From Eledone cirrhosa (taxonomy: Eukaryota), in the NCBI GenBank assembly GCA_964016885.1, contig OZ024741.1, forward strand, positions 168,640,001 to 168,704,000: a stretch of DNA of 64,000 nucleotides, read 5' to 3'. The first letter of the stretch is position 1, and every line of letters starts with the position of its first letter. This document shows, one piece after another, positions 8,841 to 58,286 of the stretch. The position numbers were made by a program, and so were the translations under genes. Below the pieces are notes generated by a model. The model saw only the letters and a program-made list of their open reading frames with translations, was not told the DNA's origin and made no database searches.

Positions 8841-9711
8841 TCTAAACTATAATAAAGGAAGGTCTGCGGGACTGCGTACGGTTTATTATTTTTTTTATCC
8901 CGTTAGTAAAATAAGTTGGATTACTTTGAATAAATAATTGTTTCTACTTTAGGCACAAGGCCAGCAATTATCCAGTGCATTACTGGTACTTTATTTTATC
9001 GACCCCGTAAGGATGAAAGGCAAAGTCAACAAGTAGATAAATTATGTAATATTAATTCATTACTTTGAATAAATAATTGTTTCTACTTTAGGCACAAGGC
9101 CAGCAATTACCCAGTGCATTACTGGTACTTTATTTTATCGACCCCGTAAGGATGAAAGGCAAAGTTAACCTCGGCGGGATTTGAACTCAGATCATAAAGG
9201 GACGTAACTATGCTGGAAAGCATGGCGTCCGACCCTCTACCGATACTGCCAATCCACATGAATTAATATTACATAATTTATCTACTAAATTTCGTAAACA
9301 AAAATAATTTCGTAAAAATAAATAATTTAAAATTGACTTCTTTCCAAAGTTGCACTTCCGGTATATCGTTGCCACCACCACCACCACTTCAACTACCATA
9401 TATATAGAAAGAGAGAGTTTGTGATGCCAACACTTCCGGTGGCGTTCACTTAAATAAACATACTAATTTTTTGTCAATAATTTTCTCCTAATGCAGTTTA
9501 TATATAATATCGTCTTTTTTTAATGTATCATGGATTACGTTACTGATTACATAAGACAGTGTAACAACGTCTTCGTTCAATTTTTCTTTATATAGTCAAT
9601 TACGATTTTATTTGATGTATCATATATACATGTATATATACTTGCGTATAATATCAATATACACACTACACATGCTAGCAGAAAACCACCCGGGGGTGGT
9701 TTCTCTGCTAG
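8841..9711 (+). mobile_element. Non-autonomous Helitron-like element carrying a SINE insertion
   Basis: A|TC start (tctaaactataataaagg); terminal hairpin aaaccacc-cggg-ggtggttt then CTAG|T at 9708-9712. Confidence 0.6.
8935..9255 (-). mobile_element. MetaSINE-like tRNA SINE plus a partial duplicate of its 3' half
   Basis: Minus-strand B-box gagttcaaatccc, then gcctttcatccttacggggtcgataaaataaagtaccag (Meta-domain-like). Confidence 0.8.
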
Positions 9712-9888
9712 TATATATAATGTATATATATAATATATATATATAATATATATATATATATATGTGAATATAGACATAGAATATTCGAAAATATTCTGTA
9801 TGTTTATAATAAACATTTTGAAGACCTAATCGCTATAGAATAGAATACGTCACGTATTACAATTAGATTCTCGATAAAAGCAAGGGAA

Positions 9889-9931
9889 GTAATCTACGCG
9901 TTTCATTCTTGTTAGAAATCTTCAGGACTAC
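9889..9931 (-). ncRNA. Type-I minimal hammerhead ribozyme, copy 1
   Basis: GUAGUC-CUGAAGA-UUUCUAACAAGAAU-GAAA-CGCG-UA-GAUUAC: helix I 6 bp, intact core, helix II UUCU/AGAA, palindromic helix III, GUA cleavage triplet. Confidence 0.9.
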
Positions 9932-10198
9932 ATATCCAGTGCTTTTATCGAGAATGACACAGCTAGAGACTTATAGAATACTTAGCTGTGTACAGGAACT
10001 GGTTTGAAAGAGCGGTTGCCGGTCCGGCAGAAATTAGAAATTGGAATAAATGCTCTGAAATAGCGATATATATGTGAATATAGACATAGAATATTCGAAA
10101 ATATTCTGTATGTTTATAATAAACATTTTGAAGACCTAATCGCTATAGAATAGAATACGTCACGTATTACAATTAGATTCTCGATAAAAGCAAGGGAA

Positions 10199-10241
10199 GT
10201 AATCTACGCGTTTCATTCTTGTTAGAAATCTTCAGGACTAC
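10199..10241 (-). ncRNA. Type-I minimal hammerhead ribozyme, copy 2
   Basis: Identical to 9889-9931, offset by 310. Confidence 0.9.
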
Positions 10242-10508
10242 ATATCCAGTGCTTTTATCGAGAATGACACAGCTAGAGACTTATAGAATACTTAGCTGTG
10301 TACAGGAACTGGTTTGAAAGAGCGGTTGCCGGTCCGGCAGAAATTAGAAATTGGAATAAATGCTCTGAAATAGCGATATATATGTGAATATAGACATAGA
10401 ATATTCGAAAATATTCTGTATGTTTATAATAAACATTTTGAAGACCTAATCGCTATAGAATAGAATACGTCACGTATTACAATTAGATTCTCGATAAAAG
10501 CAAGGGAA

Positions 10509-10551
10509 GTAATCTACGCGTTTCATTCTTGTTAGAAATCTTCAGGACTAC
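10509..10551 (-). ncRNA. Type-I minimal hammerhead ribozyme, copy 3
   Basis: Identical to 9889-9931, offset by 620. Confidence 0.9.
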
Positions 10552-10818
10552 ATATCCAGTGCTTTTATCGAGAATGACACAGCTAGAGACTTATAGAATA
10601 CTTAGCTGTGTACAGGAACTGGTTTGAAAGAGCGGTTGCCGGTCCGGCAGAAATTAGAAATTGGAATAAATGCTCTGAAATAGCGATATATATGTGAATA
10701 TAGACATAGAATATTCGAAAATATTCTGTATGTTTATAATAAACATTTTGAAGACCTAATCGCTATAGAATAGAATACGTCACGTATTACAATTAGATTC
10801 TCGATAAAAGCAAGGGAA

Positions 10819-10861
10819 GTAATCTACGCGTTTCATTCTTGTTAGAAATCTTCAGGACTAC
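10819..10861 (-). ncRNA. Type-I minimal hammerhead ribozyme, copy 4
   Basis: Identical to 9889-9931, offset by 930. Confidence 0.9.
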
Positions 10862-11165
10862 ATATCCAGTGCTTTTATCGAGAATGACACAGCTAGAGAC
10901 TTATAGAATACTTAGCTGTGTACAGGAACTGGTTTGAAAGAGCGGTTGCCGGTCCGGCAGAAATTAGAAATTGGAATAAATGCTCTGAAATAGCGATATA
11001 TATGTGAATATAGACATAGAATATTCGAAAATATTCTGTATGTTTATAATAAACATTTTGAAGACCTAATCGCTATAGAATAGAATACGTCACGTATTAC
11101 AATTAGATTCGCTATTTCAGAGCATTTATTCCAATATATATATATATATATTTCAGAGCATTTAT

Positions 11166-11215
<50 letters not shown>

Positions 11216-11351
11216 AAAGTCAGGCCCCAACGGCTAGGGTCTGACCACTCGACCACTCTACTATCCACTCTACTACCCTAAGTATCGAGTACTGTGGTTT
11301 ATTATGGTCCACTTGGTATCTTACCACATCTTCTTTGTTATATATATATAT

Positions 11352-11667
11352 ATAATATAAACAAACGAAAAATCAGTGATGCATCTAGACTCAGTTTATT
11401 GCGTGTTACAATTGTTTCCCTGGCAGATAGCTCGAGGCATGATCATTGTGTGGATCTGCAGGTTCTTCGGACACATGCAATGCTTTCGGAGCAAATTTTC
11501 TTACTGGGGTTTTAGCTTCAAAAAACATCTTCCACTCTTGTCGTGCCATTGGCTGTTGTTTTTCTATGTCATCATAAATTCTGGTCACTATTGGCTGCCA
11601 CACTGGTCATCAGCTATTCTCCGTCCGACACACTTCAATGGAGTCATGTTGGGTTTGGTATCTCAAA
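11352..11667 (-). mobile_element. PLE pLTR-like repeat with a U4C hammerhead-like motif (11398-11481)
   Basis: Minus strand GUGU-CCGAAGA-ACCUGCAGAU...AUCUGCCAGG-GAAA-CAAUUG-UA-ACAC; inverted paralogue at 14335-14661. Confidence 0.7.
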
Positions 11668-11889
11668 ATTTATTTATTGTTTTTATATAATGGTATATGC
11701 GTAGACCTGTGCGTATGTATATGTATGTGTGTGTGTGTATATAGATATATATACGAGTGTGTGTATATGTATATGTATGAGTATATATATGTGTATATGT
11801 GTGTATATATATATATACATATGTGTAGTTGTGTGTGTATATACATATATATATATAGGTGTGTATGTGTGTGTATATGTGTTTGTGTA

Positions 11890-11920
<31 letters not shown>

Positions 11921-12202
11921 ACATGTCACGGGAATGTGTATGGATGGATTATATATTCATTTTATTGTATATTTCTTTTATTATATATCTATTACGGGGT
12001 CGATAAAATAAAGTACCAGTAATGTACTGGGTAATTGCTGGCCTTGTGCCTAAAGTAGAAACAATTATATATCTATTTTATTGTATATTATATTCTTATT
12101 TTATTGTATATTGTATATTTACTGTTTTTATATATGTATATGTGTAAGCATATGTGTGTGTGTAAGTACATATACATATGTGCAGGTGTGTGCATATGCG
12201 TG

Positions 12203-40715: not shown

Positions 40716-42680
40716 TATTGTGATATCTATCTACATCACTAAATCTGGATATCATCAAATATCTCTACTAAAATGGGAAGGATATGTTGTATTGTGATAT
40801 CTATCTACATCACCAAATCTGGACATCATCAAGTATCTCTATTAAAATGGGAAGGATATGTTGTATTGTGATATCTATCTACATCACCTAATCTAGAAAT
40901 CATCAAATATCTCTACTAAAATGGGAAGGATATGTTGTATTGTGATATCTATCTACATCACCAAATCTGGATATCATCAAATAGCTCTACTAAAATGGGA
41001 AGGATATGTTGTATTGTGATATCTATCTACATCACCAAATCTGGATATCATCAAATATCTCTACTAAAATGGGAAGGATATGTTGTATTGTGATATCTAT
41101 CTACATCACCAAATCTGGACATCATCAAGTATCTCTATTAAAATGGGAAGGATATGTTGTATTGTGATATCCATCTACATCACCAAATCTGGATATCATC
41201 AAATATCTCTACTAAAATGGGAAGGATATGTTGTATTGTGATATCTATCTACATCACTAAATCTGGACATCATCAAATATCTTTACTAAAATGGGAAGGA
41301 TATGTTGTATTGTGATATCTATCTACATCACCAAATCTGGATATCATCAAATATCTCTACTAAAATGGGAAGGATATGTTGTATTGTGATATCTATCTAC
41401 ATCACCAAATCTGGACATCATCAAGTATCTCTATTAAAATGGGAAGGATATGTTGTATTGTGATATCTATCTACATCACCAAATCTGGATATCATCAAAT
41501 ATCTCTACTAAAATGGGAAGGATATGTTGTATTGTGATATCTATCTACATCACCAAATCTGGATATCATCAAATATCTCTACTAAAATGGGAAGGATATG
41601 TTGTATTGTGATATCTAACTACATCACCAAATCTGGATATCATCAAATATCTCTACTAAAATGGGAAGGATATGTTGTATTGTGATATCTATCTACATCA
41701 CCAAATCTGGACATCATCAAGTATCTCTATTAAAATGGGAAGGATATGTTGTATTGTGATATCTATCTACATCACCAAATCTAGACATCATCAAATATCT
41801 CTACTAAAATGGGAAGGATATGTTGTATTGTGATATCTATCTACATCACCAAATCTGGATATCATCAAATATCTCTACTAAAATGGGAAGGATATGTTGT
41901 ATTGTGATATCTATCTACATCACTAAATCTGGATATCATCAAATATCTCTACTAAAATGGGAAGGATATGTTCTATTGTGATATCTATCTACATCACTAA
42001 ATCTGGACATCATCAAATATCTCTACTAAATTAGGAAGGATAATGTATTGTGATATCTATCTACATCACCAAATCTGGATATTATCAAATATCTCTACTA
42101 AAATGGGAAGGATGTGTTGTATTGTGATATCTATCTACATCACCAAATCTGGACATCATCAAGTATCTCTATTAAAATGGGAAGGATATGTTGTATTGTG
42201 ATATCTATCTACATCACCAAATCTAGATATCATCAAATATCTCTACTAAAATGGGAAGGATATGTTGTATTGTGATATCTATCTACATCACCAAATCTGG
42301 ATATCATCAAATATCTCTACTAAAATGGGAAGGATATGTTGTATTGTGATATCTATCTACATCACTAAATCTGGATATCATCAAATATCTCTACTAAAAT
42401 CGGAAGGATATGTTGTATTGTGATATCTATCTACATCACCAAATCTGGATATCATCAAATATCTCTACTAAAATGGGAAGGATATGTTGTATTGTGATAT
42501 CTATCTACATCACCAAATCTAGATATCATCAAATATCTCTACTAAAATGGGAAGGATATGTTGTATTGTGATATCTATCTACATCACCTAATCTGGACAT
42601 CATCAAGTATCTCTATTAAAATGGGAAGGATATGTTGTATTGTGATATCTATCTACATCACCAAATCTGGATATCAAATA
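40716..42680. repeat. 74-bp tandem satellite, about 26.5 copies
   Basis: Unit tattgtgatatctatctacatcaccaaatctggatatcatcaaatatctctactaaaatgggaaggatatgttg; no unique spacers. Confidence 0.97.
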
Positions 42681-54446: not shown

Positions 54447-54582
54447 GTGCTACTGGTAGCATGAACCCAGTACCTGTCGCATGGTCAGGTTGTCGGCGAC
54501 TAAACCGGCAACCCCACCAAGTTTACTTGGTGAGGAGGGTGATTTTGGACACTCTGCTGGACAAAAAACAAAACCTGACAGG
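54447..54582 (+). mobile_element. Isolated structured 5' module of the RTE-derived family
   Basis: Matches 14799-14937. Confidence 0.7.
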
Positions 54583-56330
54583 TTTTTGGTGATTTAAGGT
54601 TCTGTAAAATCCAGTATTTTTCACTTATGCAGAGTGTGTATCTTCTTGTTCCTTTTGCATATTCTTTAGATTGGTTCAAAATTGACCAATCCAATTTATA
54701 TTGGATACCTTGGTCTTTCAAATCCCATATTCTGCTAGCCAGAGCTGATGTGAATCTTTTTTCTGGATGTCGGAAAGATGCGACATGTGAGTAATAACGC
54801 ATTTTGAATTTGTCTTGTGTCATACCCACATATCGTTCGCTGGTGGCTGGTTGGTTGTTGCTGATGGTTGTCACTTTAGCCGCATATACAATGGCTTTGG
54901 TGTTGCATTTACCTTGTAATGGGCATTCACTTTTGACTCTACAGGAGCAATTTTGATGTTCTCTGGGTGATTTCTTATTGATGATATAAGATTTAATAGG
55001 GGGACCGCAGGAGTAGCTAATTTTGACACAGTTTCTATTGAAGATCTTATAGTATCTATGTGTTCTAGGGAAATGTTTATCTAAGAGCTCTATGAATTTT
55101 TTGCCTACATTAGTTTTAACTGCTAGAGAGTAGCGGGGGTGTGAACCAGATTATTTTTCTTTTCCTATTATTATGTTTAAAAGAGTTAGTATTATTGGGT
55201 ATGTACTTAATCGGTTCGCTAAATCTGCTATTTTGAAGGGCTTTATTATAGTAGGGGATGCCTTATTGAAAATAGCTTCTGAGGAAGAGAGGGTGGAGAT
55301 CCTACAGCTAATATTAGGGATAAGGTTTTTAAAAACTATAGGAGGATGGCAAGAGCCTTTATTTATATATTTTAAATTTTCATTAGGTTTATGGTATGGT
55401 TTATAAGAAGCAGTAGGCAAATCTAGGTTTATATCTAGAAAATTAACAATAGTAATTTTAAGATTAAAACTAGCGAAGGTTTTTATTAAGTCTTTCCTCA
55501 ATCTATCTAAGTTATGGCCTATGGTCGTATGGGAAAGTATTAGACCATCGTCGCGATAAAGCCCAAAAATATGGTTAGGGAATTTTTCTTTAAGTGTGTG
55601 TAGGAGGAATAGGCCGACTAAATCACAAACATCAGCACTGTCAAAAGAGCCCATTGAGACATCGAATGGGTTCTCTGGGTTAGATATTTTTACCCAAGTG
55701 TCATTATCAGTAAAGAGTAGAGTATTTCTAGCATGCAAGATGACATTCTCTTCAATATCAGAAATATTAGTAAACTTTCTAGCGAAATTTAAGGCTTTCG
55801 CTAAAAGAGTCTGAGTGATAGACGGGTAGAAATCTACAATGTCAAATTGGGTGAATCTAGAACTATTTTTATCTTTAATATTATTAAACCAATGTATTAC
55901 GGAAGAGCTATTTATCCATTGGAGTAATTCAGACTTACTTCTAATCTGTGTGTTTATATTATTTAATTTTTTTTTGCTGGCAAGACCGATATCAGTCTTA
56001 GCAGGGTTGATTAATAAAGTCAGCTTTGTGATCTTTAAGGGTGATATATGTATTACGTTTAGCAAGTTTTTCTGTCCTATTATCTATTTTAAAAGAACTA
56101 GCTAATTCTTTAGCTTCCTTATTTATATTATTATACGTGTTTATATTAGCTATTTGGTATTTAGAAGTGATGTTATCTATTAAGAGTTGGTCATGTAAAT
56201 TATTATTAACTTCGTATAAGTTTTTAGTTTTGTCGGAGAAAATGAACTTATTTTTAGAAGATTTGAATATTGAAATATCATTAGATAGTTTAGATTGAAG
56301 GGTTAGAGTACTTACGAAAATTGATATTGT
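54583..56330 (-). pseudogene. Penelope-like element (RT, Cys-rich linker, GIY-YIG), frameshifted
   Basis: FDIVDFYPSI, MGSFDSADVCDLVG, GLYRDDGL, VNFLDINL; linker CSCRVKSECPLQGKC; IVY..YVGMT..FKMRY..H..EKYWIL. Confidence 0.92.
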
Positions 56331-56672
56331 TGATTATATATATATATATATATATATATACAATATGTTGAAAAGGTAATACACCAGAGAGAGATATACA
56401 GTGCGTTATCAATAATACAGGGAAAAAAACCACCAGTGTATGGAATCTATAACCTATGAAAGGCAGACTATAGACACGATAATTAAAAATATAAATTAAA
56501 GCGTAAATAAATACCTCTATAACTATATAACACACGTACAAATCCAAAGATATGTTTCACCAATAATTTGTTGAAAGAAATGGGTTAGTCTCGGTTCATC
56601 CACGAACCAAAGTATCGTCTTCCTGTCTTCCTCCGGTTGCAAAGTTTTTTGAAATATCCACTTCTGCGTTTA

Positions 56673-56746
56673 CAGATTGACTTTGTTAGTTTCAGAAGAT
56701 CCCGTTAAGGGTGAAAGCAGCTATTCTTTGCTTAAACTTTAATCTG
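56673..56746 (+). ncRNA. Type-I hammerhead-like motif with U4A core
   Basis: CAGAUUGA-cuuuguu-AGUUU-CAGAAGA-UCCCGUUAAGGGU-GAAA-GCA-gcuauucuu-UGC-UU-AAACU-UUAAUCUG: all three helices pair. Confidence 0.7.
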
Positions 56747-58286
56747 TTATTTTAATAAATATTTGCTCTACGGTTCTTATATATTTGATATATATTTATC
56801 CTTATCGAGCCCTCTTTGGATTTTAGTCTTGAAATTTATTATTATTACTATATATATATATATATATTCTATAAATTCCATAATGTCTTTTGTTATGATG
56901 TAATTAGCCACATAATACACATTTCAGAATTGGATAGACACAAAAGACATTGAGTGTTTTCTCCTAATTCCACCATTTCTCATTGTGGAGACACATGCAG
57001 AATCCCAGCTAACATTTAGTAAACATTCAATAACATATTCTCTTTAGAAGCTGCTGGACACTTTTTTCCATCTATAACGGTTTTTTACCCAATTCTCTAA
57101 GCTGTGTTCACAGCTATTTTCCTGCATTGAAGATTATTAACATTTTCTAAAATAAAAGTAATAATAATAATTGTTATTAGATTTTCTAAAATAAAAGTAA
57201 TAATAATAATAATTATTATTATCATAATATTATTAAATGGAGTATTAAAACTGGTTTATCAAATGGTTAGAAGCTCTGAGGTTCACGTAGAGCTGTTATA
57301 TATATGCATGGTCAAACTGACGTTTGTTTCAGTTGATCTAAACTTTGTCCCGGTGTCATAGAACTGCAGTCCAAAAACCCTCAAAATTTTGAATTTTAAA
57401 ATTAAAAAAAAAATTTTTTTTTAATAAATTTTTTAAATATTTTTATAACTTGACCTTCAGGAGTTGGTTCAAGGTCGGAATCATCAGAGTTTATTCTTGC
57501 ATATCGATATTTCACATAGGTTCTTAACTCATATCAATCACAACAATGACAACAATAATGAGAGACAGCAAGAATATTAAAATAAGTACGAAATTTCGAG
57601 AAATCTCCAACAGCTATAGATTTTCTTGTGAAGAAACACGTAGAGGATTCCTTAAAAATCTTTTTCAAACAAACCTTTTCGAGACACTAGCTTCAATAGT
57701 CAGTTTACAGCCACCACACTCTAAGTATTCTTAAACTGACTCTTGTTACTGTCTTTCTTTTGTTCTTGAGAATAACTAGCATCGAGAGCATTTGTGGGAC
57801 TGCTCATACTAACATAAAAGCTCTTTTTGCAGGCAGTCCCCGAATCAAATTTTCAATTTTCTATTTTCTTTTACCTGTCTTCCATTATTTGTTTGGGTTC
57901 AATATAATTCTGTTAAGTAATTCTGTGAATAACGCCTGATGTGATTGCCCTGTCCTGCATCCTATTCGGATGATGAAGATGGGACATCGAAATATGTATT
58001 GTGATTTTGCAGAATTAATATTCTAAAGCAAATTTTGCAGCCTGGTCTCCTGTTAGTGTTTAATATATATGTATATATATGTTAAACCTTTCTGTATCTA
58101 TTGTAGTTATATTATATGTATAGCTAGTGCCTTCGGACGGTTTTCTTGGTGTTATACTTTATAACTGTTGTTTACTCCGGACCTAATGTTTGTTTTTAAC
58201 TTTTGATCCATTGAGTGCTTTGTGATTACCTCAAAGAAAACAAATAGTACTTGCTGTACAACAGCTAAACTTTGATTTACAACTAT

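Follow-up and report, generated by a model that had tools for sequence, protein, structure and literature searches.

Retrozymes and Penelope-like elements

Animal non-LTR retrozymes have been described as non-coding tandem units of 150-450 bp, in dimers to multimers, that carry type-I hammerhead ribozymes, have a GC content below 50% and no PBS or PPT, show target-site duplications of more than 4 bp where these are visible, cleave themselves in vitro and accumulate as monomeric linear and circular RNAs (Cervera & de la Peña 2020, PMC7229834). Penelope-like elements (PLEs) have been proposed as their mobiliser and RNA circles as the template (PMC7229834, PMC7761336, PMC4209133), and a 2026 preprint on vertebrates (Li, Clavereau & Pollet, 10.64898/2026.07.22.740005) reports retrozyme-PLE co-occurrence and a pLTR phylogeny, with no mollusc in the sampling it describes; in this literature both steps of the life cycle are hypothetical. 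PLE insertions have a recognisable signature, consisting of an inverted 5'-truncated copy plus a one-sided tail of 30-40 bp (Craig 2021, PMC8557442; likewise Arkhipova 2013, PMC3846280). In vitro, an anole PLE uses two internal initiation sites and extends both target strands (Frangieh 2024, PMC11167929), which explains both the inverted copy and the one-sided tail.

We examined a window of 64,000 nucleotides (by which we mean throughout the whole stretch of DNA analysed) on C2 of the 3.0-Gb assembly of Eledone cirrhosa. The window holds an array of 310-bp units that, at the level of sequence, meets the definition of a non-LTR retrozyme given in PMC7229834, and we are highly confident in classifying it as one. 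It resembles the described animal non-LTR retrozymes in its tandem units, the hammerhead in each, low GC, dispersal through the genome and coexistence with PLEs, and its weak palindromic helix III is like that of the dimer-requiring amphibian motifs (PMC7761336). Compared with what PMC7229834 and the 2026 preprint describe, two-armed insertions, one-sided tails and per-insertion haplotypes are seen only here; helix II is closed by U·U, and expression has been shown for the published elements, whereas the present material is DNA.

The insertions share with those of endonuclease-bearing (EN+) PLEs the inverted 5'-truncated copy, the one-sided tail between two initiation sites, the AT-rich or (TA)n target and initiation downstream of the hammerhead (PMC8557442, PMC3846280, PMC11167929), but they lack an RT-EN ORF, both arms are multi-unit concatemers, and no matching autonomous pLTR was found. 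Where an autonomous EN+ PLE has an RT and GIY-YIG ORF between its pLTRs, the window array has none. Hydra-clade PLEs likewise target (TA)n (Craig 2021, PMC8557442), although the retrozyme, unlike them, encodes nothing. The non-autonomous Chlamys elements, such as MRC1, are also non-coding PLE passengers with multicopy head-to-tail insertions, but they are green-algal, resemble their autonomous partner at the 3' end, and belong to a clade reported to lack hammerheads (Craig 2021).

The best explanation, to which we assign a probability of about 0.68, is that the array belongs to a non-autonomous family of non-LTR retrozymes that is still spreading and is moved in trans by a PLE with an endonuclease, probably one of the Hydra clade, which targets (TA)n. 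In a family so young and so large the footprint of both hypothetical steps can be seen in genomic DNA, and what appears to be new here is unusually direct genomic evidence on PLE mobilisation and a circular template. We found no published description of the 310-nt family or of two-armed, tailed retrozyme insertions, although supplements, Repbase or Dfam could hold the family; a term search of the main text of the Octopus vulgaris repeat annotation (PMC13282606) found no mention of hammerhead, ribozyme or retrozyme.

Structure of the array

Perfect 310-bp periodicity runs from 9756 to 11110 and amounts to 4.37 units, with the RNA sense on the minus strand. The four full units counted from 9761 have 0 differences and the partial fifth agrees with them up to 11110, as a first-pass annotation made from the letters alone had claimed. 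That annotation also saw no ORF in the units, and indeed no stop-free stretch in any of the six frames exceeds 59 codons, indicating a non-coding array. GC is 0.33 in the 2-kb bin 10001-12000, which covers most of it. The array ends are not LTR-type but lie in (TA)n, as do those of related insertions; the left target microsatellite occupies 9712..9755 and the right one 11172..11211.

The extent originally proposed, 9761..11110, describes a real array but is too short on both sides, since the periodicity starts at 9756 and the insertion continues beyond 11110 with an inverted 27-nt arm (11109..11135, plus strand) and a 23-nt repeat of that arm (11149..11171, plus strand). The long arm (9756..11110, minus strand) has its outer end at a point that we call site A, an AUAUAU motif at monomer positions 130-139, while the inverted second arm consists of tail only and has its outer end at a second point, site B. 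The two arms are joined through a 2-nt microhomology at 11109-11110. A copy of the tail segment between the two putative priming sites (monomer 139-165) is present inside each unit, for example at 10040..10066 (minus strand), and this segment is kept in older retrozyme families. Just downstream of site B, and within the segment common to older families, lies a hairpin (10018..10030, minus strand) that is a candidate enzyme-recognition element.

The insertion in the window is best explained as an event in which synthesis from B came to an end at site A, 27 nt on. The second copy of the B-primed start, which follows 13 nt of (TA)n, may be either abortive re-priming or a local 36-bp duplication. 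Stubs like window 11136-11171 are also present in the left flank of locus L055, where (TA)n again lies between repeats of the B-primed start, and such short repeats suggest abortive priming and re-priming.

Hammerheads and predicted folding

A 43-nt hammerhead motif occurs four times on the minus strand, at 9889..9931, 10199..10241, 10509..10551 and 10819..10861, and locates all four of the cuts predicted in the first-pass annotation (9895/9894, 10205/10204, 10515/10514 and 10825/10824, respectively). The core, helices I and II and a palindromic helix III are present in four of four full units; shuffling the unit 20,000 times produced a core plus 5-bp helix I on six occasions. The earlier description of a complete core with helices I and II stands as far as the presence of these parts is concerned, but helix II, of 4 bp, is closed by U·U, the canonical G10.1-C11.1 pair being absent in the window. 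Elsewhere the closing pair is A-U (in 287U>A haplotypes) or G-C (in a 319-nt relative). A hammerhead check of the minus strand against Rfam, which had been suggested as confirmation, gave no match at either threshold.

Helix I (6 bp) is prolonged first by a 3-bp stem and then by a stem of 16 bp (z -5.8), present once per unit on the minus strand; in the predicted fold of 10177..10265, this longer stem pairs 10250-10265 with 10177-10192. In a released monomer it would keep the two ends close to each other. The cut-to-cut monomer of 310 nt (9895..10204, and also 10205-10514 and 10515-10824, minus strand) is predicted to form a circle, with a circular fold of -67.8 kcal/mol in which helix I closes the junction. 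For helix III, which consists of the palindrome ACGCGU, two hammerheads have to pair with each other. When a two-hammerhead transcript (10193-10560, minus strand) was folded without constraints, minimum-energy and centroid predictions alike gave the double hammerhead, with a helix III of 6 bp (z -3.9, 0/100 shuffles). The arrangement in this predicted fold is the same as that described for dimer-active hammerheads in PMC4209133. Each hammerhead is thus, if the fold is right, probably active only as a dimer, and a monomer circle with one hammerhead could not form helix III.

Variation among haplotypes was also considered. Helix I variants are wobble/Watson-Crick exchanges, and the change at position 287 restores an A-U pair. 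Older families have different but fully paired helices and other palindromes. None of the six free core sites varied among the haplotypes, although only about 0.5 changes would be expected, and the invariance of the 3' core is built into the extraction. For comparison, eight of nine Xenopus retrozyme dimers did not cleave in the work described in 10.64898/2026.07.22.740005.

Size and age of the family

A search with the unit gave 169 candidate sites, of which 39 were scored, these first 39 loci having been pre-selected for identity to the window unit. In this identity-selected set, 142 of 173 monomers are identical to the window's and there are 38 differences in total (0.07%), in keeping with the claim of a young retrozyme family. 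Arms of up to 13-19 units occur at other loci. The arrays proved to be dispersed genome-wide, as had been anticipated: the assembly has 813 exact copies of the window's hammerhead, 125 exact hammerhead copies of a 312-nt sister, and 997 exact junctions of site B with (TA)n, with controls at 0. We took as an unselected set the first 20 B-end junctions on C1 without an exact hammerhead. All 20 are close retrozyme haplotypes (18 arrays, one two-armed stump and one beside an N gap), so that the family comprises about 1,000 insertions or more. That the 997 B-ends might instead be the 3' ends of PLEs is ruled out for these first 20.

Two related repeats, considered as possible pLTRs, were rejected as such, both being older ORF-less retrozyme families. 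The relative of about 319 nt (1,557 candidates) shows the U3-A8 variant of the core (PMC4209133 mentions this covariation), and the relative of about 315 nt (1,826 candidates) has the canonical core; in both, the A/B segment is about 78% alike to that of the window unit, while the hammerheads differ and have palindromes of their own. The older 319-nt family was seen at L094 and L119-L148, with the rare U3-A8 core, a palindromic helix III loop of 10 nt and again A/B ends, and the still older family of about 315 nt at L149-L178, with the canonical core and another palindrome. From one wave to the next the A/B segment is retained while the hammerhead is replaced.

At least five further hammerhead families with a palindromic helix III are found at L010/L035, L037, L077, L093, L099, L108, L116, L123, L127 and L131, and two of them also close helix II with U·U. 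At L046:4890-5226 one unit is a mosaic that combines features of the 310-nt subfamily with those of the 312-nt one.

Six public sequencing runs hold the unit, none of them listed as RNA. In three of these (X2, X3 and X6), carrying three different organism labels, it appears as one closed 340-nt contig with one or two differences. A fourth run has 673 heterogeneous unit contigs of very high summed depth. Tandem DNA would give these pictures as well as RNA. A motif scan of metagenomes gave 0 matches.

Anatomy of the insertions

Two sets of loci were used to study the anatomy. Set 1 consists of the 39 loci minus one with an end in an N gap (38 loci), and set 2 of a further 40 picked for their hammerhead pattern. 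Loci with two inverted arms whose outer ends lie in (TA)n make up 33 of 38 in set 1 and 33 of 40 in set 2. One A end and one B end were found at 32 of 33 and 31 of 33 of these two-armed loci, or 63 of 66, while the remaining three have one odd end; there are no A/A or B/B pairs among the 66. The outer ends fall at monomer positions 128-140 (A) and 158-173 (B), with 128-139 and 161-172 in set 1, most commonly at 130/139 and 165, placing site B 26-35 nt downstream of site A. A TA run of at least 6 nt abuts 60 of 71 outer ends of related insertions. The inner junctions, on the other hand, are at scattered phases. Six of 33 have inserts of 1-9 nt, and 24 of the 27 insert-free junctions overlap by at least 1 nt, compared with 47% simulated. 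Direct repeats of 7-11 bp were seen by eye at L039, L032 and L054 among 10 loci; elsewhere, including the window, they would be masked by (TA)n.

On the sequence comparison, the two-arm A/B anatomy is the PLE signature of inverted copy plus tail, and we consider it very probable that the insertions were made by a PLE. The strict rule of one A and one B end, together with haplotypes shared between the arms, indicates that both target strands were extended, from different fixed sites and on the same template sequence. This bears on the PLE mechanism.

Haplotypes and the template

Of 71 arms, 67 extend beyond the first cut. Counting the inner ends that lie no more than about 5 nt from the cut gives 0 of 66 and 1 of 64, where about two would be expected by chance in each case, so that copying did not run to the end of a cleaved linear RNA. 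Among the 20 unselected loci (17 with full units), the mean number of differences per unit pair is 0.31 within a locus and 3.98 between loci. There are 14 haplotypes among these 17 loci, and 21 among 55 multi-unit loci.

The clearest case is 114T>G, found in 19 of 19 units in both arms (11+8) of L180 and matched nowhere else in the assembly, a genome-wide search for a donor having found none. Variants fixed in both arms are also present at L200, L203, L204, L206, L219, L228, L231, L233 and L238. The variant 174T>A is fixed at two loci, with single-unit carriers on two other backgrounds, and 85A>C has four exact matches at L200, three at a 312-spaced locus and one on C14. Several changes recur: 20A>G on four backgrounds, 174T>A and 85A>C on three, and 211T>A on two. 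A single monomer read repeatedly by both polymerases would account most simply for the per-insertion haplotypes. The suggestion in the first-pass annotation that reverse transcription had gone round an RNA circle is thus favoured by one haplotype per insertion in both arms and by arm ends that ignore the cut, and we consider a circular RNA template likely.

Nine arrays (L186, L200, L193, L194, L201, L218, L044, L045 and L047) have variants in some of their units only, with counts of 2/3 at L186, 2/4 for 204C>T at L200, 3/6 at L193, 2/6 at L194, 3/11 at L201 and 2/3 at L218. A monomer circle alone does not explain these arrays, and later mutation with block duplication, dimeric circles or linear templates are needed.

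Candidate mobilisers

We inspected 92 flanks of PLE ORF ends for an autonomous PLE that shares sequence with the unit and found none in this set, which samples a minority of the PLE families of the genome; the sole matches are neighbouring retrozyme insertions. The comparison of the unit with PLE pLTRs that had been suggested therefore gave no homology in these flanks. All of the PLE ORFs examined are Hydra-like by the motifs of PMC8557442, an assignment that rests on motifs, as Pfam and PDB sequence searches did not recognise these ORFs.

An intact Hydra-type PLE with pLTRs that are 99% identical is found at L057:2687-7933 (G000 C2:98.34 Mb). Its ORF is an intact frame of 821 codons with RW-x, DKT, YRDD, CxCx5C, CxxC and CxH motifs, and no CCHH by pattern. 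The pLTR has a hammerhead with a UGCGCA palindrome, and the element ends lie at +43-46 and +134-136 from the cut. The family has at least 150 copies that are 98-100% identical at the N-terminus and is young, 52 of the top 150 N-termini being identical and many frames full-length. Five of five two-armed copies follow the rule of one end each. As a source of the unit, this family was rejected, its pLTR having a hammerhead but being unrelated in sequence, with a tail of about 90 nt. The most abundant Hydra-type family (67,813 candidates) was rejected on the same grounds, with no similarity to the unit and a tail of about 90 nt.

Proposed mechanism and alternatives

In the mechanism that we propose, a tandem array would be transcribed on the hammerhead strand, and adjacent hammerheads would pair through ACGCGU into the predicted double hammerhead, freeing a 310-nt monomer. 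Helix I and the 16-bp stem could then hold the ends for ligation, as in the model of Cervera & de la Peña, and the resulting circle, having one hammerhead and hence no helix III, would be stable. A PLE protein would cut both strands of (TA)n and start cDNAs at A and B; the pattern of ends is observed, while the enzyme is a supposition. Both polymerases would travel round the same RNA a variable number of times, as may be supposed from the single haplotype of each insertion, and the two cDNA ends would join, mostly through the 1-3-nt microhomology seen at the junctions, to give the two-armed inverted array with its one-sided tail. Against this mechanism stand the partial-unit variants, the U·U closure, the failure of eight of nine Xenopus dimers to cleave, the dispensability of the hammerhead for insertion by the anole PLE in vitro, the absence of a match to the unit in the PLE flanks inspected, and the tails of about 90 nt in both characterised Hydra families.

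In one alternative the PLE machinery and two-site priming are retained, but what is copied is a linear multi-unit transcript that comes from a homogeneous donor array and has not been cleaved; the hammerhead would be slow or dispensable and circles would be by-products. Hammerhead mutants left insertion by the anole PLE in vitro unaffected (PMC11167929), the U·U closure may slow cleavage, uncleaved RNA would likewise leave no arm ends at the cut, and 174T>A is fixed at two loci, one of which is possibly the donor of the other. At L186 and L200, moreover, a variant is in the first full unit of both arms and not the second, as expected of a linear or dimeric template. We nonetheless regard a linear template as unlikely. 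The variant 114T>G, present in 11+8 units at one locus, is found at no other, and linear copying offers no way of passing through a single monomer and then multiplying it again, as 21 haplotypes at 55 multi-unit loci require. One could go further in the other direction and suppose that the circles are a viroid-like population, mutating and recombining at the RNA level through RNA-to-RNA copying or template switching, such that the roughly 1,000 arrays would be snapshots of single molecules, in each case a circle copied by two PLE polymerases. The private variant in 19 units without a donor, the changes that recur across backgrounds and the 310/312 mosaic at L046 are compatible with this idea, but mutation at the DNA level in thousands of donor units, together with hotspots, explains them more simply, and we think a viroid-like population quite doubtful.

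Minisatellite-like local amplification by unequal crossover, following insertion of a monomer or pLTR fragment, is favoured in the discussion of 10.64898/2026.07.22.740005, and block duplications within arms (with 6-unit spacing at L047, 3-unit at L044 and 2-unit at L045) show that something of the kind occurs, as does L220, a higher-order amplification of whole insertions. It explains such secondary changes and not the arrays themselves: both inverted arms are multi-unit with common private variants, inner ends show microhomology and no common phase, 19 of the 20 unselected B-end sites exceed one unit length, and single-unit divergence is about 0.07%, leaving local amplification highly improbable as their origin. 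It is also conceivable that a coding PLE has this unit as its pLTR and that the arrays are what remains of it after 5' truncation, a possibility that the first-pass annotation had named among those that would overturn its reading. The insertion signature is PLE-type, many Xenopus retrozyme families match PLE pLTRs (10.64898/2026.07.22.740005), and about 100 of roughly 1,000 sites were read here; yet the units stand head-to-tail without an ORF, 0 of 20 unselected B-end sites enter coding or other sequence within about 1.4 kb, and three older relatives are likewise ORF-less tandem units, so that we find this hard to credit. An assembly artefact, with one unit expanded by the assembler, has the least to recommend it and is given almost no weight: the units are perfectly identical and unit numbers at single loci come from the assembly alone, but hundreds of loci have distinct junctions and locus-specific haplotypes, and the head-to-tail join is present in contigs of four of four public runs from four studies, one of which may be the source sample.

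With the circle-templated, PLE-mobilised reading as the working model, the family provides a substrate of 310 nt with defined priming sites, a candidate enzyme family that is active, and some 1,000 recent insertions as a resource.

Other repeats in the window and at related loci

The amplification at L220 (G000 C14:25.22 Mb) is a higher-order tandem array of whole insertions of a 308-nt subfamily together with flank. In the window, a short GC-rich inverted repeat (about 9675-9708) lies immediately to the left of the (TA)n target, and two copies of a repeat that is frequent in the flanks of many loci, and which we take to be SINE-like, occupy 9000-9260. Directly to the right of the array, 11212-11340 is a remnant of another (TA)n-bounded, apparently two-armed element, and similar sequence adjoins L041, L060, L082, L141, L166 and L171. 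Farther along, a broken Hydra-type PLE ORF in several frames (54503-56303, minus strand) is 37-42% identical to the L084 ORF, and the 3' end of the commonest Hydra-type family, with a degenerate hammerhead-like motif and a tail of about 90 nt, is found at about 56600-56870. The window also contains a 74-bp tandem repeat at 40716-42676, with 26.5 copies and 95% matches.
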